Virus record (IMG/VR): IMGVR_UViG_3300020477_001849
Location: 11,651 to 75,650 of that record
Origin: a virus
DNA: 64,000 bases
Strand: one strand, 5' to 3'
Shown here: piece by piece, positions 3,001 through 57,316 of the stretch
How positions within the stretch are numbered: position 1 is the first letter of the stretch
Layout of the letters: each line of letters starts with the position of its first letter
Program-made: the position numbers and the translations under genes
The notes under the pieces: generated by a model
What the model was told of the DNA's origin: nothing
Databases searched by the model: none
What the model saw: only the letters and a program-made list of their open reading frames with translations

Positions 3001-3773
3001 TGTTGACCAGACCTCCTATCTAATGACAGACAAACATTATTGAATTTGCCTTTAGGCAGTGACATACTAGAAACTAGATTTGCTGTTCCTGACGAAACAT
3101 GCATGAATAATGAAACATTCTCCTCGGCGATGTCACTACGCTCTATGCCTACTGTCAATGCACCCTCTGAAGAAGACTTTTGTATAATGACCTGCTCATC
3201 ATGTGTATGTAAAGGCACCCATACGGTCATCTCGAATGTTAACGTTTGTATACCTGTTGGGCCTATTATTACCTGACCAGATTCATCTTTTGAGAGTGAA
3301 GGAATGAGAGATCCAGCAGCATCTTTAACTTTTATATACGTTCCTGACGACCCACCTGGAACTTGTCCCGTGTTAGTTCCTGAAAAGTGGAGGAATCCGA
3401 GATGTTTTGGAAACTGCTTGTATACCCAATGCTCGAACCCTGATAGGTCGTCTAAAAATTTCTCTAAGTCCTTTCTGTCTCCGTCAAATGGAAACCGATT
3501 AATAACCTTGTCAAAAGCGATATTAACCTTAGACTCAGCTGAATTATAAAATGTATGATTTTCAAATTTGGAGAAATCAATTGCCAGCTGTTGCGTCGAC
3601 TTTATAGGCCCGGAGGGTGCATCATACCGAAATGACGAAGTGCTTGAAATATTAGAGGAAGACAACGACGCGCCAACCTGACCTCTAAGAATATTGGCAT
3701 TATAGGTCATTCTTTTTAGGGTCTCGACTGAGAACAAGTCCCTCTGCTTAAATAACGGATTTGTCTTGGCCAT
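1..3773 (-). CDS. Large virion structural protein, probable baseplate wedge subunit with LamG/ConA-like domains; 3' end runs off the window
   Basis: Not in the ORF track because the stop lies outside the window. ATG at 3773 follows the stop of the upstream gene. My translation begins MAKTNPLFKQRDLFS...IDFSKFENHTFYNSAESKVNIAFDKVINRFPFDG, and the same frame reads ...LLPKKTEFLGVQFTIESHILERAKMQY near position 60. I checked both ends, not every codon. Lies in the baseplate cluster. Confidence 0.75.
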   Translation of the reverse strand, partial: MAKTNPLFKQRDLFSVETLKRMTYNANILRGQVGASLSSSNISSTSSFRYDAPSGPIKSTQQLAIDFSKFENHTFYNSAESKVNIAFDKVINRFPFDGDRKDLEKFLDDLSGFEHWVYKQFPKHLGFLHFSGTNTGQVPGGSSGTYIKVKDAAGSLIPSLSKDESGQVIIGPTGIQTLTFEMTVWVPLHTHDEQVIIQKSSSEGALTVGIERSDIAEENVSLFMHVSSGTANLVSSMSLPKGKFNNVCLSLDRRSGQHRIKMYQSGVFKEQSATSYKFEGLPFESSDFIIGSGSTVLTSSTGASSYFTPLQTFSGAIDEFRVWHEFRSPGQQRKFQFKNVFPSKDLRLYFKFNEPTGSYTNNFIVLDSSGNSLHSKISNFTSSLRARNRGEGGSETATVGLTMPLKNERKDVNPILFPTENAVASLNQRLLFSASNYDFNNPNLITRLIPRHYLLESQEFQGFKTEEGDVGKPYATGSVNFPGGGKIGSPQIITLMMLMWSSYFDELKMFTDQFGKLLTVKYEEDRTIANQFLTFLGQYYGFPLPSFYTNAQIKQYIEGEDLLVNAQFSKNSLRFVQNQMWRRVLVNLRNITQSKGTIHSIKSLIRSCGIDPESNFKFREFGGARSRELIETYRPKRSILRMADFSGSIISNTAHLPASNDPTGFNKKIPHAMSTFLSGARLEVGMPTINPENMANKKLYPPHGRSTHPQDGLFTSGSFTVEGLYQFLESPLPGVRHHTTQSLMRIHMTGGMLGMTSAKLAYNKGQYALLNCVAISGSISENITSSLQLHVRPGGRSIKNATDPDNSFKLVMTGVNIFDGQQWHISFGRVAPQQIQPNRTAEHAPTASYFINAGSQNNGSILSFYHTSSFFGETKSVNSTVPKYGTSVSVWDWWSCSSAGDGFASAFGIDRGCFLAIGSQSLQNGIESNAIRYYVPGLNDSRYSSETARSTNFSGKIGKIRFWSKALTSEEVKAHIRDPESLGTVYPNKHFNFIHTPTGSFERLRLDVSMDQIVTQSSVNGELSFFDFTQNLSLTGTYGAPWNLTGSRGIPVYPSRQRFMMLGAGFVPQREIIKPWLTYYSTIDPKFDERSSFNKIRVRGFLDQENIDDQRTQGAPAYQIPPNEEPWDDTRFLIENSFVQALNEDIIKIFGTLEDFENSLGNPELLFASSYPDLRRLRDIYFNRLTGRIQIKEFFEFFRWFDDSVGIMIEQLLPKKTEFLGVQFTIESHILERAKMQYNFAPAYLPQGAIPLPTAVL

Positions 3774-3776
3774 GTC

Positions 3777-5384
3777 TTAATCCACCCTAAATCTCACATT
3801 TTTAGCTTCTTGGATTAATTCTAACCCAGCTTCCTTGATTAGAAAATCAATTGTATATGTCCTACCCTTTGGTAGATAATCTACGTATGTCTCAAAAAAC
3901 ATGCCTTTGGAATCGCTAGATAGCCTAGTAGCATTATTTTTCTCCTCAAATGGTACCCATACATAATCATCATCTATATCTCTAATTCTGTAATACACTT
4001 CTTCTAAAATAACACTCTTTAAATTGTAGGGTAACCTCGCAGCCTTTTGATTCGCAGCAAAATCACGTACAAAAACCCTAAACATTACTTTTTCATTGGA
4101 CTTATAGGAATTTTTTGCATTTGTGACTATCATATCAAGCCGCTTGGGTGCAATATTAAATGATGTAGGGTCATTTCTACCCACAGTTAAACTACCGGTA
4201 TAGTAACCCACTTTCCCATCAACAGAACCCCATATTTCATCAAAGGTTATTGATCCACTGGCTATAACAAAATCTATGACCCTTGTACTACCGAATATGA
4301 CACCGGTGTCTTGGCTAGATATAGCAAATGATGCAGAGTATACACCTGTCATGTAGTTGAATATCCTGGTATCAGCTCCAGCTGCAGATATAGAATTATT
4401 TAGAACCTTTGTTCCAGCCTGGTGCTGAGATGCTGAAATTTGCTTACTGTATGAACCTGATTCTATTTTTAGAATCATGCAATCCGTACCAGTGACTTCA
4501 GAGGCAGCAGTACCAGACAATATGCTCGCAGGAATTCCTCTTTTAAAATTCTTAAGAAATACGGACCCGGTTAAATCAAAAAATAGATTTTGGTGTTGAT
4601 CTTTTATGGTGTCATCGTACGTAACAACAAGTCTAGGAATTTTTGTCTTATCTCTTACATGCCGACTTGCAAACCTCTTAACAAATCTAGTTTTTGCATC
4701 ATTTTCTTCTGAGCCTGTGAATGACAATCTCCACCCGCAGTCAGGTAACACCCCCGCAATGGTTGCTGAGACAATTGTCGTCACATCCATAGACAGGTTC
4801 TCGCTTCCCTGCTTAAATAACTGTGAAACCCCTAATCCTGTGGTACCGTTTCCATCATTTAAATTTCCGGAAACTATAATATCAATATCAGCAGGGTATC
4901 CGGTGCCGGATGTCTTGTCAATAGTGCCTTGCGCATTTGCCCCAGAAAGATACCATGCAACATTTGATGCATTTTTATAAGATGCAGTAACAAAATTTGC
5001 AACGTCTAAATCAGAAAATGACACTACGTTCTTGCCAATCCCTTCGTCAAATGATTGTGAGAGTGGAAAAAGCATTAATGTAAAATTAGTGGGGGTTACT
5101 TGGCCACCCATAATATCGAAAAGCTCTAATGTACACTTGAAGTCAGAGCCATCTAGGTTCAAATTTTCCCTTGATAACTTTTCTATTCTCTCAAAATCAA
5201 ATTTTATTAGCCCTCGTGATAACTCTACAGGATTATCCACACCGGTCAGAAATGATTCATCATAAAGCTTAAACAAATCGATGGTGGAAGCTTTTCCCGT
5301 ATTAGCATCTGAGGCACTAAACGCATTCGATATAATCTTATTCGTGATATATGTGTCTTTGCTAGCAGTTAATGTAAGATACAA
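3777..5384 (-). CDS. Virion structural protein (baseplate-associated), function unknown
   Basis: 535 aa, TTG start after AGGAGG. Ser/Gly/Thr-rich beta-type sequence beginning ASKDTYIT, between baseplate genes. Confidence 0.6.
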   Translation of the reverse strand: MYLTLTASKDTYITNKIISNAFSASDANTGKASTIDLFKLYDESFLTGVDNPVELSRGLIKFDFERIEKLSRENLNLDGSDFKCTLELFDIMGGQVTPTNFTLMLFPLSQSFDEGIGKNVVSFSDLDVANFVTASYKNASNVAWYLSGANAQGTIDKTSGTGYPADIDIIVSGNLNDGNGTTGLGVSQLFKQGSENLSMDVTTIVSATIAGVLPDCGWRLSFTGSEENDAKTRFVKRFASRHVRDKTKIPRLVVTYDDTIKDQHQNLFFDLTGSVFLKNFKRGIPASILSGTAASEVTGTDCMILKIESGSYSKQISASQHQAGTKVLNNSISAAGADTRIFNYMTGVYSASFAISSQDTGVIFGSTRVIDFVIASGSITFDEIWGSVDGKVGYYTGSLTVGRNDPTSFNIAPKRLDMIVTNAKNSYKSNEKVMFRVFVRDFAANQKAARLPYNLKSVILEEVYYRIRDIDDDYVWVPFEEKNNATRLSSDSKGMFFETYVDYLPKGRTYTIDFLIKEAGLELIQEAKNVRFRVD

Positions 5385-5393
5385 AATACCCTC

Positions 5394-7247
5394 CTATGAA
5401 GCAGTGCCAATTATGTCGAAATCCGGATATCTTAACTCGAATATCCCTCCCTCCATAGGAACAATCATTCCTTTTATATTCATCTTAGATGGTTCAAATC
5501 CTATTATAGAATATTCCCTACCGTTGACTATTCCCACACGAGGTATTATTTTTGGCATCTCTTGAATTGCTATAACCCCCTCGGTATTAACAATAATATT
5601 AACAATATCAGATGTCACTATTGGTTGGCCTATCTGGAAATTCTCTATAGTTAAGATATCCCTAATGTTAGCTATAACCTCCTGAACAACTGTTGACTTA
5701 TTGGAGGATGGGTGCGTGACAATCGAAAACTCTACGCCGAAGTTTAGAACCCGCGTATCCAAGATGTCCACTGCATCCGAAACTAGCCTAAATTCATTTA
5801 AGTACTTTCTTAAATTCTTTTTTAGTGCATCTGGAGATACAGTTAACCTACCTTCCCTGTCTAGGCTAATAACATAAAGATTAGATGCAAGAGGGTTCAT
5901 TGGATTATTTGTAGCCATGGCACGATACACCCTCCCAAACCTAGCAGGTAATGTAAATATCCTGGCATATAAATCTGACCTTGTAACCATGCGGGCTTGT
6001 GAATTTCTCGTGGATGCTATTGCAGCCCTGAGATCGTCTAGGGTAGGGGGATTTAATCCTCCCCCCGCCGGTTGTGTGTTTATAGCTGCGATAGACTGCT
6101 TGACACCGTCCGACATTGCTTTTGTTATGCTAGTGTTAGGAAACAATATCTGTAGAGTCTCTATAGTATTAATTGAATTTGCATTTACGTTATGTGATAA
6201 CCCACCCCCAAAACGATACTTGATAGAAAGAGTAGTATTAACTGGTGCAATTCCCAATGTTTTTGTCTCTAGTAATGAGTTGGGATCTATAACGAACCTA
6301 GAGAATGTTTTCTTTCCATATAGCTTTAAGGCTAACTCGCTAGGGTCGGGAATAATGTCATCGTTAAGAGACTTAGCTGTTCCACCACCGAACTGTAGGG
6401 TTGTTATTTTTGTCTTAGGGTCCACTATCTTTACGAACCTGCGAGGGGCAGGTATGATCTCCATATCCTGCTCTACAAGCGCGCCTTCGGCGTCCGGACG
6501 TAGCTTTCCGCCGTATACGACATCATCAACCAATGAAGAAACCTCATAATACTGGTTTCCGTTTGTGTCATAGACGGATATTACTTCAGTCACATTAACA
6601 TTCCCTAAATCTATTTGCCTAAAGGGTTCATGTACATTAGGGATAAAAAATGTCTCGGTTGTTTCTTGGCCTGAAACACAAATACCTTTTTGCGAAATAT
6701 TATAGGCTGTAGGGGCTCCCTCATAGTCTACGCCGGCTATCGAAACATCTGCCCTAAGATCTCCGGACTTAAACTGGCTACCCATGTTAATGTCTTCTAT
6801 CAGCGTAAATTTTATGCCACCAGGACCGACTAAAACTGTTCCCTGTTGTATAATGGGCAATGCTGTCCTATTTGGACTACGTACACCATATGAATTTTCT
6901 TGATGTGGAACTTGAATAGAGAATGTAATCTCAGCAACCGCAGGAGAAGCTGTCACTATATCCACGCCGGCGTTCCTCAGGTGTGATATCACATTATCAG
7001 GTTCTATTGCAGTAAATGGATTTAGCTCATTAAATTGATGATCTAGATAAAAAGACAGGTTGTCACCAACCATTGCTGCAAAGTCTAGTAGCATTCCCCC
7101 TAATGACGACTCAGAAAAATCTTGTATCTTATCAGGAAAATAAGTCTTTGCATATCCCAATAAGTCTGCCCTTAGGCTATCAAAATCCTTTGCTAGGTAT
7201 GTCCTACTACTTACATTCTTTAATTTATTCTTAATATCTTTTGGCAT
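5394..7247 (-). CDS. Baseplate wedge protein (T4 gp6 / baseplate J-like)
   Basis: N-terminal YLAKDFDSLRADL...YFPDKIQDFSESSLGGMLLDFAAMVGDNLSFYLD, plus LQFGGG, YRFGGG, AGGG and QARMVTRSD motifs typical of gp6-like wedges. Directly downstream of the gp25-like gene. Confidence 0.85.
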   Translation of the reverse strand: MPKDIKNKLKNVSSRTYLAKDFDSLRADLLGYAKTYFPDKIQDFSESSLGGMLLDFAAMVGDNLSFYLDHQFNELNPFTAIEPDNVISHLRNAGVDIVTASPAVAEITFSIQVPHQENSYGVRSPNRTALPIIQQGTVLVGPGGIKFTLIEDINMGSQFKSGDLRADVSIAGVDYEGAPTAYNISQKGICVSGQETTETFFIPNVHEPFRQIDLGNVNVTEVISVYDTNGNQYYEVSSLVDDVVYGGKLRPDAEGALVEQDMEIIPAPRRFVKIVDPKTKITTLQFGGGTAKSLNDDIIPDPSELALKLYGKKTFSRFVIDPNSLLETKTLGIAPVNTTLSIKYRFGGGLSHNVNANSINTIETLQILFPNTSITKAMSDGVKQSIAAINTQPAGGGLNPPTLDDLRAAIASTRNSQARMVTRSDLYARIFTLPARFGRVYRAMATNNPMNPLASNLYVISLDREGRLTVSPDALKKNLRKYLNEFRLVSDAVDILDTRVLNFGVEFSIVTHPSSNKSTVVQEVIANIRDILTIENFQIGQPIVTSDIVNIIVNTEGVIAIQEMPKIIPRVGIVNGREYSIIGFEPSKMNIKGMIVPMEGGIFELRYPDFDIIGTAS

Positions 7248-7253
7248 AAATTA

Positions 7254-7736
7254 TCATCCTGCTACATATAGCATTACCTGGACCTGTTTATCAAATGCAT
7301 TTAAAAGAGGGATATCAAATGTTACCCTAATTCCAATCTTAGCAACATCTTTGTTGTCAAGGTGATCTGTAAAGGTTGTGAAGTCCTTTAAGGTTATAAA
7401 TGGCATATATTTTGCAGATGTAGCAGATATTCTCTCCATTGCTACAGCATCGATATCTTCACTGCCAAGTTCAAATGTTAATTCTCTTAAATTTGCACCA
7501 AAGTCATAATGAACCATCCTCTCACCATGATTTGTTAAGACCATATTTCGAAAATTATCTACCATCTGATCCCCAATGTCTTTATGCATCTTAAATAAAC
7601 CGTCATCAGTTTCGCCATACTCTATGGGTGTTTTAATACCCAAGGGTAATGCATCCTGTTGTGGTAACAGCTGCTGCTCATCTAAGCTGGAAAGACCTGA
7701 GCTGATGAAACTGTATGTCTTTTGGTTTTGTGGCAT
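7254..7736 (-). CDS. Baseplate wedge gp25-like (GPW/gp25 family) protein
   Basis: NFRNMVLTNHGERMVHYDFGANLRELTFE matches the gp25 signature LxTxxGERxxxPxFG. Confidence 0.88.
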   Translation of the reverse strand: MPQNQKTYSFISSGLSSLDEQQLLPQQDALPLGIKTPIEYGETDDGLFKMHKDIGDQMVDNFRNMVLTNHGERMVHYDFGANLRELTFELGSEDIDAVAMERISATSAKYMPFITLKDFTTFTDHLDNKDVAKIGIRVTFDIPLLNAFDKQVQVMLYVAG

Positions 7737-7766
7737 TCTCTGCTCTATAGAGTTGTCGTTATGGAT

Positions 7767-7773
7767 TAAATAT
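7767..7773 (-). promoter_or_regulatory. Putative late-promoter motif ATANTTA (ATATTTA) upstream of the gp25/gp6 genes
   Basis: 30 nt upstream of the gp25-like ATG. The same 7-mer recurs upstream of several other minus-strand genes (see findings). Confidence 0.45.
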
Positions 7774-7871
7774 GTACTCTAGCAAATCCTATAACGAATA
7801 GAGCTTAAATAAAACACGCGTAGTGATATATACGCTAAAAGATATACAAATATCTTAAGATATGACGGCTA

Positions 7872-42436: not shown

Positions 42437-43741
42437 TTACAGTATATTAGAAGCCATGGCAGCAATTGCTGATCTCTGGCTATCTTTTAAATGAGCATGC
42501 GCAGCCAATTCAGTATTTTTTAATTTTTCGATTGCTATCGATAGCCCATTTGATTTTTTATCGATATAGGGTGTGTCGACCTGATCGGTATCACCCATCA
42601 GTACAATCTTCGAGCCATGTCCAATTCGAGTAATTATTGTTTTTAGTTCGTGAATAGTTGCATTTTGTGCTTCATCAACTATTACATAGGAATCATTAAA
42701 GGTTCTTCCTCTTATATACGCTAATGGGGCTATTTCTATTTCACCCTTTTGTTTCATCATGTCAAAATATGTTAGATCCTTAAAGGCATGCCTAAAATTA
42801 TCCATAATGGGTGCCATCCATGGTGCCATTTTTTCGCCCATATCACCGGGTAAATAACCTAAATCTCTCCCAACAGGCTGTATTGACCTGGTCACAATAA
42901 TTCTTTTATATTTTCTAGTCATAAGCCCAGCTAGCCCGCACATTAGGGCAAGATATGTTTTACCTGAGCCGGCTATACCTGTTAATGATACTAACTGAAT
43001 TGTGGCATCACACAGAATATTCATAGCATATGCTTGCTCTTTTCCTCGGGGCTCTATATTAACTGTTGAACCCAGTTCAGTCTTTCCAATTTTATGTATC
43101 TGATTTTTCTTAAAAATACCGATTAGCGATTTTCCTGAATAGCTTTTTGCTATAACAAACTGGTTTGGGTATAATTCATGATCCAACCTGGTCAGGTCGA
43201 TATATCCATCTTCATAAAATTTATCAACATCAGAATCGTCTAGACTTAGGATACTAGGCTCTTCAGGCCCTTCCGAATCCGTCGACGGAATATGATCCTT
43301 CCAGTAGTCCTCTCCTACCAACCCTAGGGCATCACATTTAACTCGAAGGTTAATATCCTTGGTTACGAGCTTAACTGTCCTCTGGGGATGAATCCTAGCC
43401 AGTCCTAGGGCTGTGGCAACAATCTGGTTATCAGCATAATCAGGTAATAAGCCGGCGGGGATATCTTCAGGTTTTGAATAGCTGGTTTCTATCCTGATTG
43501 TTTGATCAGAATTAGGCAACTGGACTTCCTTATCCAACCGGCCGATTTCCCTAAGGCCGTCGAGATACCGGTTAACATACCTAGCAGACTCGCCCAATAG
43601 CCCGGATTTATCTTTAAACCTATCTAGTTCATCTAAAACCGGAAGAGGTATAATAACGTCGTTTCCTGGAAATGAATGAATTGCGCTTTTATCATATAAC
43701 AGCACGCTGGTATCTAGTACCAGTAATTTTCTGTTGCTCAT
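42437..43741 (-). CDS. phoH: PIN-PhoH fusion (PhoH2/YlaK-like ATPase with PIN RNase domain)
   Basis: PIN: VLDTSVLL, ELD, D...TKDINLR. PhoH: GIAGSGKT, GYLPG, YIRGRTF, DEAQN, GDTDQVD. Confidence 0.92.
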   Translation of the reverse strand: MSNRKLLVLDTSVLLYDKSAIHSFPGNDVIIPLPVLDELDRFKDKSGLLGESARYVNRYLDGLREIGRLDKEVQLPNSDQTIRIETSYSKPEDIPAGLLPDYADNQIVATALGLARIHPQRTVKLVTKDINLRVKCDALGLVGEDYWKDHIPSTDSEGPEEPSILSLDDSDVDKFYEDGYIDLTRLDHELYPNQFVIAKSYSGKSLIGIFKKNQIHKIGKTELGSTVNIEPRGKEQAYAMNILCDATIQLVSLTGIAGSGKTYLALMCGLAGLMTRKYKRIIVTRSIQPVGRDLGYLPGDMGEKMAPWMAPIMDNFRHAFKDLTYFDMMKQKGEIEIAPLAYIRGRTFNDSYVIVDEAQNATIHELKTIITRIGHGSKIVLMGDTDQVDTPYIDKKSNGLSIAIEKLKNTELAAHAHLKDSQRSAIAAMASNIL

Positions 43742-44128: not shown

Positions 44129-44486
44129 TGGTGGAGATGCCGGGAGTCGAACCCGGGTCCAAAATAAGTCTATAATCAGGTCATTCACAAGTTTAGCTAA
44201 TTTATTCCCGAACTAGCAAGGTATCTCGAAAAATCAACATTCCTATCGAGAATCGGAACCCACCTATTTCTAGGGACCATTCTTAATCTTTTTTATGTCG
44301 GTGAGATTAACCACTTATCCAGCTTTGATAACAAGGTTGCTGGAAACCCCGGATTAAGCAGCTAAGGCGTAATCATACTCAACATTATCGTTGGCATTTA
44401 AAGTTTATGACACTGTCAATCCATGTGTCACAGTTGGATACTTGCACCCTCGAACTTTCTTACCTTGTCGATACCAATTCACCCCC
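44129..44486 (-). ncRNA. ssrA: tmRNA, one-piece, about 358 nt; tag ANDNVEYDYALAA encoded at 44395-44354
   Basis: 5' GGGGGTG pairs with 3' CATCTCC-ACCA (G3:U70 alanine identity, encoded CCA). T-arm CCGGG-TTCGACT-CCCGG. Internal frame GCC AAC GAT AAT GTT GAG TAT GAT TAC GCC TTA GCT GCT TAA after ...TAAAT. Confidence 0.96.
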
Positions 44487-46418: not shown

Positions 46419-46883
46419 TTACTTCGTATGCCTATCCGCGATTGAGAATGAAGCCCATGAATCCGGCTTGACAAAACAGCTGTATCCCATGGATTTAACA
46501 TAGTTGACTAAAGGGCTTAAAAATTTAGAGCTAGCAAATTTAGGATTTTGGTTTATATCAATATGAATTGATATTCTAGAAGCATCGATGTGCTTTTGAA
46601 TTTCTTGTGCTACATCAATTGAATGTGTTACTTCTTTTTGTAACCTAGAACCTAGGGCGGCGTTTAAGTATTTTTTTTCCCAAATTCTTCTATAGAAATA
46701 CCTGCCGCCCTTTTTTGGCTGGACAACACAAATTGCTATAGCAAAGTTAACTTTTTCTTTTTTGACCTGTGAGTCTGTACCGATATGAATTTGGCTTCCT
46801 GGATGATTCCTTACAACAGTTAACATTTCATTGAATGAAATCCTATCACCTGATCCGGTATTCCAGAAACTATTTTGGTTCAT
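46419..46883 (-). CDS. RNase H-like YkuK (DUF458) family protein
   Basis: IHIGTDSQ, RLQKEV..S, IHIDIN, KPDSWAS..ADR. Confidence 0.85.
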   Translation of the reverse strand: MNQNSFWNTGSGDRISFNEMLTVVRNHPGSQIHIGTDSQVKKEKVNFAIAICVVQPKKGGRYFYRRIWEKKYLNAALGSRLQKEVTHSIDVAQEIQKHIDASRISIHIDINQNPKFASSKFLSPLVNYVKSMGYSCFVKPDSWASFSIADRHTK

Positions 46884-48286
46884 TTATTTTCACACAAGAT
46901 CATGGTAGAACAATTTCCGAGTGTTCGTGTAATAGAAATACAACTTTTCAAAGCTTCACACATCGCAATAAAGCTTAAACTATCAAACCCATATTTTTCA
47001 AGCTTTATTAATGATAAATATAACCACCTAACATCCAGTGGTATTTTTTTAATATCCACCAACCCGAACCTAGACAGGTCCCTAGTTAATTTAATACCGG
47101 TCTCTAATCTATCAAGGTCAATTCCCTTTTTTTCCATTAGCGAGTCCCTTAGCTTTATGTGTACGCATCTAGAGACTAGCCCATTTAATCTTCTAGACAG
47201 AAATTCCCGCTTTTCTATAGATTCGCATGCCTCTATGTCTTCCTTGATATTCCTCACATGAAGACTAACTGACCGTGATGTATTATCATTCTCTATGACA
47301 ACATGGCCATTATCTAATGTTACTTTAGGAATATCTAAGATATCTTCAAACGTAATAGATGATATTAACTCGCCCTTAAGCGACGAAACCACGTCAGTCC
47401 CACAGATAACTGCAATATCCTTCAAGAGGTTTGCACCCTCTAGGTCATAAGGTACCGATACTGGAATAACCTCCAGCGTCTTTCTCATCCAATTGGTCGC
47501 AAGAGTAGCTAGTACTTCTTCACCATAACCTCTCGCAAAGATAATGCCTGCCTGTTTTTCTTCATGAAATTTCTCTAATAAAAGGTTAACCTCAGACACT
47601 TTCTCTATTATACCGTCAATTATAATTGGCTTTACATCGTGTAAGGTAATTGATTTAAGCTTCGTCATTAACCGAAATTCTTGTGGGGGTGGCAAATAAT
47701 ATGAGTACCCACAGACTAGCTCTATAGAGCTTTCTTTAGAATTTTTCTTATCGATAAAGATATTTCCGTTTGCACCAGCTAGCGATATCGCAGATTCTAG
47801 AATATGTGATATTTCATTATCCCTAAAGAGCATGTCGTAATAGTGACATAGGTCATCTTTATTGGCAGGTAAAATTGAAGCGTGTATTTTCTTTAATAAC
47901 CCCTCAATCTCGCTTACTATGTTATTAATATCTTGGGGTCTTCTACATAGTTCTAAAAGACTACTGGATACTAAAAACAAAAATAGTATTCCTGCTGTGG
48001 CATGCTTTCTCTCACACCGCACAGCGGCATTTCGCAATATTTGTAGAATAAGATTTTCTTCTTGTTCACTAAAGGAGTGATTTGTAACGAGTCTCAAAGA
48101 CTCAGATAAAGATAGGGGAATAAATCTAGATTCGTACGACTGATGTATGTTACCCTTAGAAATGTTTTCCAGCATTTCTGATAGGAATACAGCTATCTTT
48201 TTTTTAGCGCCCCTAGTCTTGTTACTAAAGACCGGTACGCTGAAGCTTGGTTCCATATCTTTAGTGCCTGACCGGTGGTTCACCAC
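46880..48286 (-). CDS. Divergent chaperonin (GroEL/Cpn60-like) with degenerate ATP-binding motifs
   Basis: Apical-domain-like IIDGIIEKVSEV..LLE...IIFARGYGEEVLATLATN...LLKDIAVICG and EKREFLSRRLNGL...IKL. GDGTTT is absent. True start may be ATG 48256. Confidence 0.75.
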   Translation of the reverse strand: MVNHRSGTKDMEPSFSVPVFSNKTRGAKKKIAVFLSEMLENISKGNIHQSYESRFIPLSLSESLRLVTNHSFSEQEENLILQILRNAAVRCERKHATAGILFLFLVSSSLLELCRRPQDINNIVSEIEGLLKKIHASILPANKDDLCHYYDMLFRDNEISHILESAISLAGANGNIFIDKKNSKESSIELVCGYSYYLPPPQEFRLMTKLKSITLHDVKPIIIDGIIEKVSEVNLLLEKFHEEKQAGIIFARGYGEEVLATLATNWMRKTLEVIPVSVPYDLEGANLLKDIAVICGTDVVSSLKGELISSITFEDILDIPKVTLDNGHVVIENDNTSRSVSLHVRNIKEDIEACESIEKREFLSRRLNGLVSRCVHIKLRDSLMEKKGIDLDRLETGIKLTRDLSRFGLVDIKKIPLDVRWLYLSLIKLEKYGFDSLSFIAMCEALKSCISITRTLGNCSTMILCENK

Positions 48287-48512
48287 CGTGACCCGACGTT
48301 GCTAGGTTCAACAGCGTATCTCTTACTTTTAGCAATGCACTGTCGATTGCCTGACTTTCCTGTTGGGCTTTTTGATTTGCCAACCCCAACCTCCCCATCC
48401 CTAACACTAGTGATAAAGCAAATAGAATCCATGCAAACACAGAATGGTTAGTGGTATAGAGTAAAACTGATAACAGTAAACACAGTTCAGGATATTCAAA
48501 GGTAATTTTCAT
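48261..48512 (-). CDS. Small membrane protein (two TM segments)
   Basis: Two hydrophobic stretches, strong AAGGAGG SD. Confidence 0.6.
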   Translation of the reverse strand: MKITFEYPELCLLLSVLLYTTNHSVFAWILFALSLVLGMGRLGLANQKAQQESQAIDSALLKVRDTLLNLATSGHGGEPPVRH

Positions 48513-48555: not shown

Positions 48556-50484
48556 TTAGCTGTCTCTCCATAAGTTATTACTAGCGAATGTCAAAACCTC
48601 TTCAGCAGAATCTTCAGTGTATCCATACTCATGAATCATTACTGATATCATGTCACCATATTTCTTTTGCTGTTCATCATCTCTTGTTTTTGACTTAGTA
48701 ACAATCCTCGCCATATCCTTGACAGAAGATATGAGATACGATTCAATCGCTTCCTTTAGGGGTTCATAGCTAGAGTAGTTAACTTTCTCGCCCCTTCTCA
48801 TCTTAGCAAACATGTATGCAGTAACATCACTTCGGAACCCATCCCTAGATGATCCTACAATTCCTATTTGCTCTTCTATAGTCCTCATGAAAGTCTCGTC
48901 AGGCTCCATCTCTTCTTTGGTTATTCTATCTTTCAGTTTTTGCCTTGTAGTTGCAGCTTCGGCATTGTCTAGGTAGTTATCAAATAACGATTGAGCCTGC
49001 TCTTCATAAGCAGTGATAAATGCTTTTGCAATTTCTGTTTCTAATATTTTTAGGTACTCTTCTCTTACAACCTTCTGTATAAGCTCAAGACAGTTATTAC
49101 GAAATTCTTCATCCACTATTTGCTCTTTGACCTGCCTAGTCAACGAGTCCATTACCGATATCGGTGTAATCATAGACTTATCACTATCCGATAGTGCACT
49201 ATCAAGTGCCTTCATTATAAACCTAGTAGAAATACCTGTCATTCCTTCTTTTCTAGATTCATCCCTCAGGTCTTTGATGTCTATCTTTTTAACCCTGCCT
49301 TTCTCTATAACATCATCGCCATTGTAAATTTTCATTTTAGTTAATAGGTCACATTTGCTTGAGGGCTTAAGTCTGGACATAACACTAAACATTGATGCAA
49401 TTTTTATAGTGTGAGGAGCGATGTGGTCGTTAAATTCAGATCTACCTAATTGCTTTTCATAGATTTTTATTTCTTGATCTAATTCTAAAACATATGGCAC
49501 GTTAATCTTAACAACACGATCAAGAATTGCTTCATTTGTATGCGACGACTGGAATCGATTCCACTCCGCTTCGTTACAATGTGCGACTATTACTCCATCG
49601 AAATAAATCATGTCATTCTTACCAGGAGAAGGTACTCTTTTTTCCTGAGTTGCAGTTATAACAGTGTGAAGAAATTCAATTTCATTCTTAAATATCTCGA
49701 CAAATTCTACTATCCCTCTATTTCCAACGTTAAATGCACCATTAAGGGAAAGGACCCGCGGGTCATCTTCAGGGTATTTATCAAGCTTCGAGATATCCTC
49801 AGAGCCTACTAGCACCGATACATCTTGGCTATTTGCATCCATCGGAGGTACGGATGCAACCCCACGCCTACCCCTCTGAGAAAAGGTAGACTGTGTTACT
49901 GGAAAGTTCTCGTATTCCCCACCAAGATCAGAAAAAAGCATATGCCTTGCTATAGGACTAATATCACCCTCTATTTTAACACCCAGCATTTTTTCAAATT
50001 TACCACGAAGGCTGCGAGGTAAAAGCTGTAAAGGTTCCCCACGCTGTGGGTCTCCGCTTAAGTGATAATACACATGTCCCTCTAGAACAGATTTTATATG
50101 CTCAGTAAGGGCTGATTTTCCAGCACCAACAGGTCCCATCAGCAATAGTACCTGGCGACTTTCCTCCCCCTTAAGGGCAGCCGACTTTAAGAATCTCATA
50201 ATTTTTGCAATTACTCTTTCCATTCCGAAAAAGTCTTCTTGGAAATATTCGTAAATTTTAATATTGCTGGAATCAAATAGTTTGTGGTGCCTAGGGTCAG
50301 ATGTGTCCATTGCACTAACACCATGATCCTCTATAGCATCACACAATCTTTTATGAGATAGTTTCACTACACCTGGATTTTTTGATACTAAATCTAGGTA
50401 ATCCAAAAAAGTCCCATCAAACTTTTCTTCTTTTTTAGAACTTCTTTGTTTTTCAATTAGCTTTCGAAAATTTGCCTTAGCCAT
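48556..50484 (-). CDS. prkA: PrkA/YeaG family AAA+ 'serine protein kinase'
   Basis: FFGME, Walker A LMGPVGAGKS, GNRGIVEFVEIFK, HCNEAEW, NEAILDR, HIAPH, EGMTGISTRF, YGY. 642 aa, full length. Confidence 0.93.
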   Translation of the reverse strand: MAKANFRKLIEKQRSSKKEEKFDGTFLDYLDLVSKNPGVVKLSHKRLCDAIEDHGVSAMDTSDPRHHKLFDSSNIKIYEYFQEDFFGMERVIAKIMRFLKSAALKGEESRQVLLLMGPVGAGKSALTEHIKSVLEGHVYYHLSGDPQRGEPLQLLPRSLRGKFEKMLGVKIEGDISPIARHMLFSDLGGEYENFPVTQSTFSQRGRRGVASVPPMDANSQDVSVLVGSEDISKLDKYPEDDPRVLSLNGAFNVGNRGIVEFVEIFKNEIEFLHTVITATQEKRVPSPGKNDMIYFDGVIVAHCNEAEWNRFQSSHTNEAILDRVVKINVPYVLELDQEIKIYEKQLGRSEFNDHIAPHTIKIASMFSVMSRLKPSSKCDLLTKMKIYNGDDVIEKGRVKKIDIKDLRDESRKEGMTGISTRFIMKALDSALSDSDKSMITPISVMDSLTRQVKEQIVDEEFRNNCLELIQKVVREEYLKILETEIAKAFITAYEEQAQSLFDNYLDNAEAATTRQKLKDRITKEEMEPDETFMRTIEEQIGIVGSSRDGFRSDVTAYMFAKMRRGEKVNYSSYEPLKEAIESYLISSVKDMARIVTKSKTRDDEQQKKYGDMISVMIHEYGYTEDSAEEVLTFASNNLWRDS

Positions 50485-50502
50485 TAAGCACCCCGAATAT
50501 AA

Positions 50503-51810
50503 TTAGATTTCCCATGGTTCTTCTTCAATAATAGTTATTAATTTTGCAAGATCACCCCACAATGTACTGACATGTAGTATAACCTCGTCTGCATATGTGA
50601 GCTCTAAATCTCTGCCATCGTGATCATGCCTCAAGCATAAAATATTGCCGTCCTCTATCTTATCTACATAAATCTTAGGTATGGAATTAATACCTACATT
50701 TTTTAACAACGACTCTTTTACTAGTTTCCATCCATCGTCATCTGATATTTCTGACACACTATACGTACCTTTCTGGTTTTTAAATGAAAACAGGTTTAAC
50801 TCTTCACAATCATCCCTTGTTAGGTATTGCCTAAGAAATGCTTCGTCATGTGAAACTTCTCTAGCCACAAAACACTCCTCAAGGCCGTGACGTTCCTCTA
50901 TTTTATTAAACAGATAAAATCCCAAATGATAAGGATTAATTCCTCCTATGTGAGGCCTAATAACTTGGTTGTGACTTTTTATAAATGGTAGGTGTAAATT
51001 TTGGGGCAGGTCAAGTTCATTCATCATCCTATAATGCCAAAAGCATGCCCAACCTTCATTCATAATTTTCGTTTGTATTTGTGGAATGAAATACCTAGCG
51101 TGATCTCTAACTATTTCCATTAGGTCAACCTGCCAATCTTCGAGATTTCTAGCATGTTCTAAAATGAACCCCAGCAAATCGCGGTCAGGTTCTAGTGGAA
51201 TTTTCTCAAGATCAAAATCTTCATACATTCCGGATGCATCATTTTTTACTAACGATGTATATTTTTTCTTTAGTTCCTTATGGGATTCTCTTTCATACGG
51301 AAAGCTAGGCACCTGAAATTCTATTGCATGGGCAGAATCCAATATTTGTTCTACCGCTGCAATTCCTATGCTGGGATCTTCTATGTACCCCTGTATCCTT
51401 TTTTTTGCATTTCTAAACCTAGAAACAACAGTCTCAGCACGTGTATTTTGAAACATTCGATTATTTTTAAAAAAGTCTGAATGCCCTACGCAGTGACACA
51501 TAATCAGTATTTGTAGATAGAGAGGGTTTTCTCTCATTAAGTACGATATCGAAGGGTCAGAGTTAATAATAAGCTCGTATGGAAGTCCCTCAGCTCCAGC
51601 ATTGTACATCTGGTGTGTTCTTTCAAAGCTTTTCCCAAATGACCAGTGAGAATAATGGCTAGGCATACCATGATAGGCCATATTACCAATCATCTCGAAA
51701 TAATCACATGTCTCATAAACAATAGGGTACCAGTCTAGGTCATGTGATTTTGCCAATTCACAAATTTTTTCATCCCATTCAGATAGGTCATCTAAATTCC
51801 AATCATTCAT
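50503..51810 (-). CDS. spoVR: SpoVR/YcgB family protein
   Basis: GMPSHYSHWSFGK, YELIINSDP, HCVGHSDFFKNN, YFIPQIQTKIMNEGWA, NPYHLG. Confidence 0.93.
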   Translation of the reverse strand: MNDWNLDDLSEWDEKICELAKSHDLDWYPIVYETCDYFEMIGNMAYHGMPSHYSHWSFGKSFERTHQMYNAGAEGLPYELIINSDPSISYLMRENPLYLQILIMCHCVGHSDFFKNNRMFQNTRAETVVSRFRNAKKRIQGYIEDPSIGIAAVEQILDSAHAIEFQVPSFPYERESHKELKKKYTSLVKNDASGMYEDFDLEKIPLEPDRDLLGFILEHARNLEDWQVDLMEIVRDHARYFIPQIQTKIMNEGWACFWHYRMMNELDLPQNLHLPFIKSHNQVIRPHIGGINPYHLGFYLFNKIEERHGLEECFVAREVSHDEAFLRQYLTRDDCEELNLFSFKNQKGTYSVSEISDDDGWKLVKESLLKNVGINSIPKIYVDKIEDGNILCLRHDHDGRDLELTYADEVILHVSTLWGDLAKLITIIEEEPWEI

Positions 51811-52978
51811 CTAATTTCCCCCCAAAGATCTTTCTAAATGATGGCCAGATGTCCTCTTTAGAGAATATCTTTACTATCTTAAAGTTCTTATCAACCAGGT
51901 TTGCAAATGCATTAGAAAGCCTAGAATCTCTATCTTCAAGCCATTGTACTCGATCACGCTCAGGTTCAATTTCGCAATAACAATAGAGCTGGCAGACATC
52001 CTTTAAGGCAACTGCTGCTTCATTGCAACTAGAAGTATCATCAGGCCAGTTATCACCATCTGAACACTGGAACGTATACACGTTCCATGACTCGGGATGA
52101 TATCTTTCATTAACTACTTCAAGTGCCCTCTTAAGTGCACTTGAGACTATAGTTCCACCCCCGCTTCCTCTAGTGAAAAATTGTTTCTCATTAACTTCAT
52201 AAGCGGATGTATCATGAGAGATAAATACAATGTCGACATTTTCATAGCGGTGGCGAATAAACTGGTATATTAGAAAATAAAAGCTTCTTGCTATGAATTT
52301 CTTATCCTTGGTCATCGATCCGGAGATATCCATTATAAAAAAGATTACGGCGTTACTAGATTCTTTATGCGTCTTTTTTATGTGCCTATACTCTAGATCG
52401 TTGTTGTGAAAAGTGAACCGATCTTCATCATACATCCCTTCACGCTTAGCACCAGCACGCCTTTTAAGCCGATTAATAGCTGTCTTTTTCTTGTCAAGCC
52501 TAGGACGTATTCCTTTTTTCCTATAACCACTTCTCTTAAATTTCTCAGAGGTTATTTTCTTAATCTTTTTTCTTTGTAGCTCTGGTAGTTCTAGGTCTCT
52601 AAACAGGTATTCAGCCAGTTCATCTAACGATATTTCAACCTCATAGTACTCAGCACCCTTCTCATTTCCAGCCTGCTTTCCCTCTCCGGGCTTTGGCTGT
52701 GATGGTGCCTGCCCTACCGTCTGTCCACGCTTTACGTTCTTACCTGGCGCAGATCCAGCCTTAGAGTTACTTTCATTATCGCCATATACAAAGCGGTATT
52801 CTTTAATACCTCGTACGGGTATCTTAATTCGCTTCTTTCCGTCTTCACCGATTATCGATTCTTCTGAGACAATATCATATATCCCTTCCCTAATCGCCCT
52901 TTCTATTTTTTGCTTATGGCGACGGCGATCAGATGCAGAACGATCAGCTGATGTTTTATGTTCTTTAAATGTAGACAT
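51803..52978 (-). CDS. yeaH: YeaH/YhbH (DUF444) vWA-domain protein
   Basis: DRRRH, DLELPEL, AVIFFIMDISGSM (MIDAS), FF..GSGGGT..SS, WNVY.FQCSDGDNW. Confidence 0.92.
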   Translation of the reverse strand: MSTFKEHKTSADRSASDRRRHKQKIERAIREGIYDIVSEESIIGEDGKKRIKIPVRGIKEYRFVYGDNESNSKAGSAPGKNVKRGQTVGQAPSQPKPGEGKQAGNEKGAEYYEVEISLDELAEYLFRDLELPELQRKKIKKITSEKFKRSGYRKKGIRPRLDKKKTAINRLKRRAGAKREGMYDEDRFTFHNNDLEYRHIKKTHKESSNAVIFFIMDISGSMTKDKKFIARSFYFLIYQFIRHRYENVDIVFISHDTSAYEVNEKQFFTRGSGGGTIVSSALKRALEVVNERYHPESWNVYTFQCSDGDNWPDDTSSCNEAAVALKDVCQLYCYCEIEPERDRVQWLEDRDSRLSNAFANLVDKNFKIVKIFSKEDIWPSFRKIFGGKLDE

Positions 52979-53018
52979 ATTACCTATAATTATGCGGCAA
53001 AGTGGCTACAAAGTTTAA

Positions 53019-53978
53019 CTAATTTTCAACCATACATCTCGCAGAGATTAGTGCCGGCCTCAGATAGTTCTTAATATCGGCCTCGATTTCATCCCATGTT
53101 AACCATTTTGCTGCATGATGTTCACACTCACCGGTTGCAGGATTCGGTCGAATAATGGGGTCTTGCTCAGTCACGCCGACGTATAGCGTAACATGGCTAA
53201 CCCTAAATGTCTTATAGCCCCATGGGAATTTGATGTCGGATAACCCTGCCTCTTCATACGTTTCTCTTATTGCTGCATCAAAGGTATTTTCACCTGGTTC
53301 TATATTTCCCTTAGGCAGGTCATATTTTTCATATATCCTTAGGCCCAAAACCCTGTACTCAAGCCCTACTTGCTTTAAAACAATAATTCCTGCAGAGGGG
53401 CATCTACTTTTTTTTTCCATAATAGTCTCCCTTATGAAATTGCGAAGATCTGTTACGTCGTTTTCTATGACACCCTCAGACACCAGTGTGTGGCTAAAGC
53501 CTACACCCGAGGCCTCGGCTGCATTTTTAATGGCATATACATTTTTTATGTTATCTTCATACACATGTACATGTGTATAATCTCCAGCCTCTAGTCTTTT
53601 CGCTACGTACAAGCCTTTGTCATTTGGATTAGATGATCCTAGTGCGACAATGGAGATATTACTACGTAGCCCATTATCTTTTAAGAATTTTCTAACGGGA
53701 GGTGCAGAGCTTCTTGCTGTTAAAATAACGACGTTGCTAGCACCATGTTCACCTATAGTTTGCTGTAACTTTTTAAAGGTGCTTGGTATTGTCCTCCCCC
53801 CAGGGGGGTAGATTTCAAATTCAGAGAAATCAAATTTATCATCTGCTAATGGCTCATATAAAGCAAATTCTCCGCTATCTAAGTAACTAGTAGTACCATC
53901 ACCATGATATACTGTGACCTGCGCATCTGAAATTGCTAGCGTATCATCAAAATCAAATATGTGCAATGTATCATTCAT
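53019..53978 (-). CDS. HAD-like phosphatase fused to a Nudix hydrolase (Ap4A-hydrolase-like)
   Basis: N-terminal IFDFDDTL, ILTAR, K, YEDN. C-terminal Nudix box PKGNIEPGENTFDAAIRETYEEAGL. Confidence 0.85.
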   Translation of the reverse strand: MNDTLHIFDFDDTLAISDAQVTVYHGDGTTSYLDSGEFALYEPLADDKFDFSEFEIYPPGGRTIPSTFKKLQQTIGEHGASNVVILTARSSAPPVRKFLKDNGLRSNISIVALGSSNPNDKGLYVAKRLEAGDYTHVHVYEDNIKNVYAIKNAAEASGVGFSHTLVSEGVIENDVTDLRNFIRETIMEKKSRCPSAGIIVLKQVGLEYRVLGLRIYEKYDLPKGNIEPGENTFDAAIRETYEEAGLSDIKFPWGYKTFRVSHVTLYVGVTEQDPIIRPNPATGECEHHAAKWLTWDEIEADIKNYLRPALISARCMVEN

Positions 53979-56473: not shown

Positions 56474-57316
56474 ATGAAAAAACCCAAGCTTAAGCTTAAC
56501 AGTATCATCTGGATTGTCGTTATTTTTTCCGCCCTTTGTTTGAGTTATTCATGTTGCGCAACATCCCAATTGGGGTTGGTGTCTAGAGAAGACGCAACTC
56601 ATATTAATAGAAATGCATTTACGCTAGTAGAAGCATCTTATGAGTTAATAGCAACCGAATGCCTAGGAAATGAAAAGAAATGTAAAACAATGCCAAGAAA
56701 CATAAAAGTAAATTCGATGCAAGCACGCGGGTCAGGTGTTATTATAGAACATCGAAGAAATTCGACATACATCATGACTGCTGGTCATGTATGCGAGCAT
56801 TCATTTCCAGACACAGTAAATGTCGATGGCCTAAAGTATGCAACAAGATCCCATACTAGCATAAGGTTCTTTGACCTATACGGGTCGTCTCATGAAGGTA
56901 GGGTGCTATACTCTGACATGGAGGCTGACATATGTATCGTTGAGTCACCTGGTCAGTGGGGCTCAACAATTAGGATAGCTGATTCAATGCCACGGCATGG
57001 AGCTAGAGTATTTAATACGGCTGCACCGTTTGGCATTTATTCACCCAAGATGGTGCTAATCTTTGAGGGATTCTACTCAGGTGAAGACATGACAGGCAAC
57101 GTATTTTTTACGTTACCTTGCCGTCCCGGAAGCTCAGGATCTCCAGTCTATAACTCAGATGGTGAACTTATAAGCATTATTCACTCTGCATCTGTAATGT
57201 TTGAAAACCTAGGTCTAGGCTCTAGGTTAGAGATCATTAAGGAAGCAATCAAGGCTCATATACCACCTAAGCTAGAACCTATCGTACATTATATGTGGTA
57301 TAAAGAAGTTAACTAA
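56474..57316 (+). CDS. Trypsin-like (S1) serine protease with N-terminal signal/membrane anchor
   Basis: Basic then hydrophobic N-terminus ending in SCC, GSG, TAGHVC, D in ADIC, PGSSGSP. Confidence 0.88.
   Translation: MKKPKLKLNSIIWIVVIFSALCLSYSCCATSQLGLVSREDATHINRNAFTLVEASYELIATECLGNEKKCKTMPRNIKVNSMQARGSGVIIEHRRNSTYIMTAGHVCEHSFPDTVNVDGLKYATRSHTSIRFFDLYGSSHEGRVLYSDMEADICIVESPGQWGSTIRIADSMPRHGARVFNTAAPFGIYSPKMVLIFEGFYSGEDMTGNVFFTLPCRPGSSGSPVYNSDGELISIIHSASVMFENLGLGSRLEIIKEAIKAHIPPKLEPIVHYMWYKEVN

Follow-up and report, generated by a model that had tools for sequence, protein, structure and literature searches.

A cassette of yhbH, spoVR and prkA in a marine jumbo phage

The window analysed here is a stretch of 64,000 nucleotides, bases 11651-75650 of the 75.6-kb IMG/VR virus record IMGVR_UViG_3300020477_001849 (CheckV completeness about 21%), and its subject of interest is a set of three genes (the trio) of the yhbH/yeaH, spoVR/ycgB and prkA/yeaG families, which run head to tail on the minus strand from 52978 to 48556 in the order yhbH>spoVR>prkA. 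Their open reading frames (ORFs), Pfam matches and conserved columns bore out the proposal of the first-pass annotation, made from the sequence alone, that a full-length YeaH with a vWA/MIDAS domain, a SpoVR and a PrkA of the AAA+ class are encoded here with intact motifs, and the 8-nt overlap it had reported between the end of yhbH and the start of spoVR was found at 51803-51810. A gap of 18 nt separates spoVR from prkA. In adjacency and co-orientation the trio matches the cellular prkA-yhbH-spoVR operon, from which it departs in that prkA does not come first, and the three genes are probably co-transcribed as a single unit; no terminator was found after prkA, sigma-70-like promoter and terminator signals not rising above those of shuffled sequences. 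The cassette is placed between a Nudix-domain gene and a GroEL-like gene (Table 1).

The phage PrkA matched AAA_PrkA (PF08298; E-value 1.1e-134, 449.5 bits, cut-off 25) and the kinase-like C-terminal domain PF06798 (1.2e-80, 271.4 bits, cut-off 25), as well as the PDB entry 9xip, 'Serine protein kinase' (1.6e-92). It carries the Walker A motif GPVGAGKS with lysine K123 (K108 in Bacillus subtilis), a Walker-B-like segment VEFVE, N304 and R323, it retains 179 of the 199 columns with 97% or higher conservation in bacteria, and its core and motif segments are near-identical to those of clostridial PrkA. Against the NCBIfam YeaG-type equivalog NF011999 it scored 395.1 bits, under the cut-off of 576, and it is a family member of the PrkA-type branch of the tree and not a YeaG equivalog.

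YhbH matched DUF444 (PF04285; 1.7e-113, 380.3 bits, cut-off 27). Its nearest NCBIfam model was the Bacillus-type spore_yhbH, although the score against this equivalog (TIGR02877) remained under the cut-off (415.7 bits vs 467.95), and the vWA subunit of cobaltochelatase was matched weakly. The MIDAS residues D217-x-S219-x-S221, T276 and D307 are invariant, and 56 of 63 conserved columns are kept. The AlphaFold2 model, with a predicted local distance difference test score (pLDDT) of 75, consists of an N-terminal helix, a disordered, low-confidence Gly-rich linker (residues 58-104) and a C-terminal vWA/MIDAS domain. All of the 222 PDB matches obtained for it by Foldseek at an E-value of 1e-3 or below were vWA/MIDAS structures, including Rea1-MIDAS and NorD in complex with the AAA+ protein NorQ. 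SpoVR matched PF04293 (7.7e-122, 407.4 bits, cut-off 27) and kept 66 of 74 conserved columns, while its score for SpoVR_C (26.2) fell slightly under the cut-off of 27.6. As all three proteins lie under the NCBIfam equivalog cut-offs, they are diverged family members and no orthologue-grade copies.

The window is DNA of an uncultured marine jumbo phage. Its genes lie almost all on one strand and include PHROGs matches for a baseplate wedge protein, PhoH, a deoxycytidine monophosphate (dCMP) deaminase and a phage-type DNA helicase (phrog_2488, 1.3e-109); each trio gene also matches a PHROG family of unknown function. The best cultured matches of the helicase were the jumbo phages Tunturi_5, Bacillus phage G, Xoo-sp13 and RsoM2USA. 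The G+C content (GC) of the trio region (0.375-0.388) is the same as that of its flanks. Four contigs, up to 288 kb in length, are recorded with an identical PrkA. Besides the window's own protein, the best 120 of 7074 metagenomic PrkA matches (E-value <= 1e-20) were 77-88% identical to it, and some of these 120 came from Tara samples, with contigs of up to 312 kb; the contigs of relatives reach about 290-320 kb. Megablast of the 4.4-kb trio region against GenBank phages gave zero matches.

Table 1 Features of the window and of Thermus phage loci. Positions refer to the window, except in the last three rows, where they refer to the locus named.
Feature	Position	Strand	Basis or remark
PhoH-like phosphate-starvation-inducible ATPase	42437-43741	-	phrog_2765, 2.2e-94
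Sigma-70 region-4 protein, 91 aa	43819-44094	+	PF04545, 9.6e-10
tmRNA	44129-44486	-	ARAGORN
RNaseH-like protein	46419-46883	-	PF04308, 8.9e-31
Divergent GroEL-like gene, 468 aa; downstream neighbour of trio	46880-48286	-	NCBIfam GroEL models, ~1e-19; phrog_5725
83-aa ORF	48261-48512	-	
prkA, AAA+ ATPase, 642 aa	48556-50484	-	ORF and Pfam
spoVR/ycgB family gene, 435 aa	50503-51810	-	ORF and Pfam
yhbH/yeaH (DUF444), 391 aa	51803-52978	-	ORF and Pfam
ATAATTA (within CATAATTA)	52987-52993	-	8 nt upstream of yhbH ATG
Nudix-domain gene; upstream neighbour of trio	53019-53978	-	Pfam NUDIX, 1.2e-11
Trypsin-like serine peptidase domain	56474-57316	+	PF13365, 1.5e-14
Trio of Thermus phage TMA (L002)	1651-7776		
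Trio of Thermus phage Lalka8 (L004)	3573-7788		
Trio of Thermus phage phiLo (L144)	3798-8746		

Gene order, phylogeny and the motif before yhbH

The bacterial homologues were represented by the 80 best matches, with one genome per prokaryote species. These belonged mostly to Clostridia and other Bacillota, the others being metagenome-assembled genomes (MAGs) labelled Deltaproteobacteria, Binatia and Alphaproteobacteria, and the best identities to the phage proteins were 53-58% for PrkA, about 38-49% for YhbH and about 39-49% for SpoVR. All 72 of the nearest bacterial loci with enough flanking sequence read prkA>yhbH>spoVR, so the permutation of the phage genes, which the first-pass annotation had pointed out, is real and, in this sample, phage-specific. 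Cellular PrkA-type operons thus hold the same full-length families in tight linkage and co-orientation and share with the phage trio the Walker A, MIDAS and SpoVR His/Glu columns, but they begin with prkA, which comes last in the phage, whereas the phage copies form a clade of their own and sit in a lytic-type jumbo-phage gene array.

The permuted order is not peculiar to the window. A PrkA-anchored scan of IMG/VR yielded 50 loci (63-84% identity), 46 of which held the whole trio as yhbH>spoVR>prkA, the remaining 4 being cut by contig ends, and most of them also shared the downstream GroEL-like gene and a 153-aa gene (o153). A single-protein helicase scan of viral contigs had given 3 loci, and an alignment-based scan anchored on the helicase, which avoids selecting on the trio, was used instead; among the 73 loci with at least 6 kb of downstream sequence that it provided, the trio was present in 51, always in the same order, and all nearer relatives (those with about 51% helicase identity or more) carried it. 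Order and synteny were shared by dozens of viral contigs, of sizes up to 318 kb. The GroEL-like gene is syntenic in most related loci and occurs also in relatives without the trio. Three such IMG/VR loci (L224-L226), from more distant relatives, keep the arrangement helicase>Nudix>GroEL-like>o153 with some 350-570 nt at the site of the 4.4-kb trio, indicating that the conserved backbone occurs with and without the trio, a clean gain or loss of the size of a cassette.

Outside this clade, the Thermus phages phiYS40, TMA, phiLo and Lalka8 also carry the permuted order (vWA/YhbH, SpoVR, PrkA). Their trios, public since the phiYS40 genome of 2006 (GenBank DQ997624), lie among portal, minor-head and terminase genes in phages of thermophiles, and their PrkA proteins, 29-33% identical to the one studied here, are found on long separate branches; TMA and phiYS40 differ further by an additional 616-aa gene between spoVR and prkA, and the SpoVR of phiLo has 617 aa. 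By contrast, a YeaG-type trio in the order prkA>yhbH>spoVR is found in Ralstonia phage RsoM2USA and in two uncultured huge phages, LR745206 and LR756504, and LR756511 and the IMG/VR loci L055/L056 (grouped here with L054) have a divergent trio, likewise in the bacterial order; in LR756502, prkA and yhbH stand alone within the flank examined. Like the window phage, the carriers of the bacterial order are large phages, with a helicase among the best cultured matches of the window helicase. Their PrkA is either YeaG-type (58-65% identical to Escherichia coli YeaG, and 62-65% in the huge phages) or very divergent, and we read their trios as independent acquisitions. The survey of gene order across phages that had been suggested as a check therefore extended the permuted order to the clade and to Thermus phages, but not to other jumbo and huge phages, so that it is not unique as a phage arrangement.

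Two kinds of database record deserve mention beside these phages. In Enterobacter phage LAU1 (L145, 1-3308), yeaG-yeaH adjoins tail genes at the end of the GenBank record and looks like the host flank of a prophage and not like a phage-borne module. Conversely, public PrkA fragments 77-82% identical to the phage PrkA are assigned to MAGs, namely P0005 ('serine protein kinase [archaeon]') and L077, a 1379-bp contig of a 'Proteobacteria' MAG (77% identical); such fragments are likely, and L077 is evidently, phage contigs mis-binned into cellular genomes.

FastTree trees of PrkA (133 rows), YhbH (126) and SpoVR (123) joined the marine phage sequences into one group, with Shimodaira-Hasegawa-like supports of 99, 96 and 100, respectively, the sampled bacteria being on the opposite side and the E. 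coli/RsoM2USA type forming the outgroup. In a concatenated IQ-TREE maximum-likelihood tree (42 rows, 1461 columns) the phage clade received a support of 100 and was sister to all sampled PrkA-type bacteria (support 91). Within the clade, the pairwise distances of the three genes correlated with each other (r 0.83-0.88) and with those of the phage helicase (r 0.74-0.80), correlations that are descriptive because the distance pairs are not independent. At the same 14 loci, PrkA was more conserved than the helicase (divergence of 0.24 vs 0.43). The ratio of nonsynonymous to synonymous substitutions (dN/dS), taken from the closer pairs with unsaturated dS since many pairs were saturated, was 0.02-0.09 for all three genes, values that indicate strong purifying selection on the phage trio. 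The phylogenies that the first-pass annotation had called for thus returned one congruent clade across the three genes, which implies long residence in phages; the trio is neither a chimera nor a recent host capture.

An ATANTTA motif had also been noticed 8 nt before the yhbH ATG, and it is indeed present as ATAATTA, the 5' side of the gene reading CATAATTA-TAGGTAAT-ATG, where TAGGTAAT separates ATAATTA from the start codon. In the window overall ATANTTA is rarer than expected (50 copies vs 97). On the minus strand, 10 of its 37 copies precede a start codon by no more than 40 nt, where 3.5 would be expected from composition-matched shuffles, and 2 of 1000 shuffles gave at least 10; among the start-proximal copies are those of the Nudix gene (9 nt spacing) and of yhbH (8 nt). 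In the related phages, ATANTTA was found in the last 40 nt of 42 of the 76 distinct yhbH upstream regions, against 6.2 ± 2.3 expected, an enrichment that overstates independence as these are kin sequences, and its distance to the ATG peaked at 5-8 nt. ATANTTA is a real, clade-conserved signal, and ATAATTA a candidate for a clade-specific promoter or translation-initiation element. With a spacing of 5-8 nt, a promoter would imply a nearly leaderless mRNA, or else the motif is a translation signal. Neither a sigma-70-like site (TTGACA-N17-TATAAT) in the 40-nt region upstream of yhbH nor the T4 late consensus TATAAATA near the trio was found, and together with the short spacing this left the claim that the phage has placed the trio under its own promoter without support.

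Fold of SpoVR and proposed function of the trio

The invariant residues of SpoVR form a conserved His/Glu cluster consisting of H106-x3-H110-x-D112, N251-E252 (within NEGWA), H259 and H280. In the AlphaFold2 model (pLDDT 89.2, predicted template modelling score 0.87) the H106-x3-H110-x-D112 motif lies on a long helix after a beta-sheet, and N251-E252-G-W-A begins a later helix. When residues 1-330 were submitted to a wide search with VIA-align, nearly all of the top 50 matches were zincin metallopeptidases, among them M1 aminopeptidases, leukotriene A4 (LTA4) hydrolase, thermolysin, M32 and M3 peptidases, angiotensin-converting enzyme (ACE) and MATCAP; 27 PDB chains reached a Z of at least 8 and the best, a DUF885 protein, a Z of 11.8, scores to be read with the tool's own note that helical models can attain a Z of about 13 by chance. 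In the M1 peptidase sequences that we fetched, the third zinc ligand is located within WLNE(G/A)F. The model suggests, on a fold match of moderate strength, that SpoVR is zincin-like, and the protein could act as a hydrolase of non-canonical type or else be a pseudo-peptidase.

We propose that the trio, expressed as one unit, forms a machine powered by ATP that remodels or turns over proteins, a reading to which we give an even chance and which combines the role of E. coli YeaG (SpdA) with a vWA partner and a third subunit of zincin-like fold. PrkA would be a hexamer-type AAA+ motor that unfolds or remodels proteins at the expense of ATP. YhbH, with its vWA-MIDAS domain, would be the partner or adaptor of this motor, like the vWA member of other AAA+/vWA pairs, and SpoVR would be a zincin-like, His/Glu-rich third subunit that would either be catalytic in a non-canonical way or serve in substrate binding alone. 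During infection the machine would most likely turn over or remodel cytoplasmic proteins in the manner of YeaG/SpdA, and the turnover would free amino acids and energy to build a phage of about 300 kb in nutrient-poor marine hosts. The complex of the three proteins, its proteolytic activity, its substrates and the timing of its expression are what we infer in this scheme.

The closest experimental parallel comes from E. coli, where YeaG (SpdA) is needed for the RpoS-dependent, largely non-specific proteolysis by which carbon-starved cells obtain amino acids and ATP from cytoplasmic proteins (PMC13684143). YeaG, YeaH and YcgB of E. coli belong to the same families as the phage proteins and are the sole system with a defined physiological output, although they represent a distant subtype (about 32% PrkA identity) that falls in the outgroup, and their genes are split into yeaGH and ycgB. 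In six bacteria, cofitness links yeaG, yeaH and ycgB with one another (bioRxiv 10.1101/072470). PrkA of B. subtilis hydrolyses ATP by means of its Walker A lysine, and the same lysine is required for an ATP-dependent casein proteolysis that is sensitive to phenylmethylsulfonyl fluoride (PMSF) (PMC9512850), and PrkA of B. anthracis was put by its authors in AAA+ clade III together with FtsH/YME1 (PMC13001217). The combination of an AAA+ motor and a MIDAS-bearing vWA partner is likewise found in NorQ-NorD, in Rea1/Mdn1 with its MIDAS domain and in magnesium/cobalt chelatase, systems to which the trio does not belong at the level of sequence and in which SpoVR has no counterpart. If SpoVR is zincin-like, the trio would resemble a split version of FtsH, in which the AAA+ domain is fused to a zincin protease, a likeness that draws on a moderate fold match and a motif without the catalytic Glu. 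A bolder version, which we hold to be doubtful, would make the trio a three-part ATP-dependent protease, with SpoVR as a non-canonical metal-dependent peptidase (HxxxH plus NEGWA, the customary catalytic Glu being absent) fed by PrkA via the YhbH MIDAS adaptor, by which an abundant clade of marine jumbo phages would liquidate the host proteome to gain amino acids and energy, starting from a nearly leaderless, phage-specific start signal.

Several observations, besides the chance level of the VIA-align scores, weigh against turnover as the function. The paper on YeaG-dependent proteolysis makes no mention of YeaH or YcgB (PMC13684143), casein degradation by B. subtilis PrkA was very slow (PMC9512850) and the protease and kinase activities of B. 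anthracis PrkA were negligible in vitro (PMC13001217). The SpoVR model gave nothing at an E-value of 0.001 or below when compared with the PDB by Foldseek, a feature search of the ESM Atlas gave no usable match, and 57 SpoVR homologues compared with Pfam at an E-value of up to 10 matched no peptidase family. The sole conserved His pair reads HCVGH in the phage and HVYGH in bacteria; with Cys or Val after the first His, and no Glu, it does not form HExxH, and SpoVR was therefore not filed as a metallopeptidase. Alignment of SpoVR with the M1 profile by hhalign gave a single local alignment that laid NEGWA on WLNE(G/A)F at a probability of 2% (E-value 0.022), with no HExxH upstream of the NEGWA helix, and no papers linking SpoVR to metallopeptidases were found. 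Finally, 22 of the 73 helicase-anchored loci had no trio within the 9 kb downstream that were examined, so that the trio is probably dispensable for this phage type.

Most marine hosts are non-sporulating, which counts against a second and, in our view, unlikely explanation, namely that the trio acts as a regulatory switch (kinase-like or adaptor) that reprogrammes the stress, stationary-phase or sporulation programme of the host without bulk turnover, for example by blocking dormancy. The kinase-like C-terminal domain of PrkA is intact, Price et al. interpreted the cellular trio as a signalling pathway (bioRxiv 10.1101/072470), loss of PrkA leads to pleiotropic sporulation and osmotic-stress defects (PMC9512850, PMC13001217), and viral spoVR was taken as a sporulation auxiliary metabolic gene (AMG) in a marine virome study (PMC8940887). 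Kinase activity, however, was not found for the PrkA of B. subtilis or B. anthracis (PMC9512850, PMC13001217), the C-terminal P-loop of PrkA has been described as degenerate (PMC9512850), and the 2026 data from E. coli tie YeaG to global protein loss over specific signalling (PMC13684143). Of the suggestion in the first-pass annotation that the phage carries a whole stress/dormancy-control or protein-remodelling machine, the whole machine has stood, while its stress/dormancy and sporulation framing has become weaker than protein turnover in the light of the literature of 2022-2026.

Alternatively, the trio could be a chaperone or assembly machine that works with the adjacent GroEL-like protein on phage proteins (those of the virion or of a replication compartment) and leaves the host proteome untouched. 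In most relatives the GroEL-like gene comes directly after the trio or close to it on the downstream side, the trios of Thermus phages sit among portal, minor-head and terminase genes, and NorQ-NorD and Rea1-MIDAS serve in maturation or remodelling. We nevertheless consider such a role improbable, as relatives devoid of the trio also have the GroEL-like block, showing that block and trio are separable, the proteins are near full-length cellular homologues (90% of the conserved PrkA columns being kept) with no phage-specific domains, and several unrelated phage groups took up the trio next to differing neighbours.

Jumbo phages are rich in counter-defence genes, and an ATP-driven unfoldase or protease could target defence proteins, so that the trio might remove or inactivate specific host anti-phage proteins. 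We regard this as very unlikely, since the PADLOC models gave weak P-loop matches for PrkA (DolB, 5e-6) and none for YhbH or SpoVR, and the proteins are highly conserved relative to cellular homologues of housekeeping type, which speaks against a target in an arms race. An artefact or passenger (host sequence present as a chimera, or a silent host operon of recent capture) has practically no chance and was rejected: although the LAU1 record shows that such artefacts exist, no support for one was found in the window, dozens of independent viral contigs repeat the order and the synteny, the identical PrkA stands on four contigs, the phage clade is monophyletic, GC matches that of the flanks, the genes are under purifying selection, and in place of the near-identity to a host copy that the first-pass annotation had considered, the nearest bacterial copies proved 53-58% identical and differently ordered.

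Phage trios are known in genomes, and PHROGs families exist for all three genes, yet they are unstudied. The paper on RsoM2USA lists PrkA and SpoVR apart and leaves the trio unremarked, spoVR is the most abundant viral 'sporulation' gene in a virome of a marine oxygen minimum zone (OMZ) (PMC8940887), and no papers treating the trio in phages were found. Few bacterial modules of unsolved mechanism are as widespread as the cellular PrkA/YeaG-YeaH-SpoVR trio, YeaG having first been tied to bulk starvation proteolysis in 2026, and the main interest of the phage trio is as an entry point to this long-standing question. Its uptake by several unrelated phage groups, and the strong selection on it in an abundant marine clade, suggest a self-sufficient unit that pays off in infection, and the phage copies offer compact, diverged natural variants for biochemical and structural work. 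The finding also corrects the label of 'sporulation AMG' for viral spoVR in marine viromes and raises the possibility that large phages in nutrient-poor water recycle protein to gain resources; were the three-part protease true, viruses would possess their own version of the 'autophagy-like' proteolysis that starvation induces.

Neighbouring genes in the window

The match of the GroEL-like protein to the NCBIfam GroEL models is confined to residues 155-384. As context, the neighbourhood of the trio (PhoH, transfer-messenger RNA (tmRNA), GroEL-like and Nudix) fits a theme of starvation and proteostasis. The PhoH-like gene lies near the tmRNA and the trio block, and the phage tmRNA, which could be of use in assigning a host, encodes the tag peptide ANDNVEYDYALAA. 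The sigma-70 region-4 protein is a stand-alone one.

Between prkA and the GroEL-like gene there is an 83-aa ORF, hydrophobic by eye and weakly conserved in two related loci (L010 and L028), which is preceded by a sigma-70-like TAAACA-N16-TATAAT and a strong ribosome-binding site, AAGGAGG. The gene of the RNaseH-like protein follows directly downstream of the GroEL-like gene, and the trypsin-like serine peptidase domain is encoded by one of the few plus-strand genes of the window.

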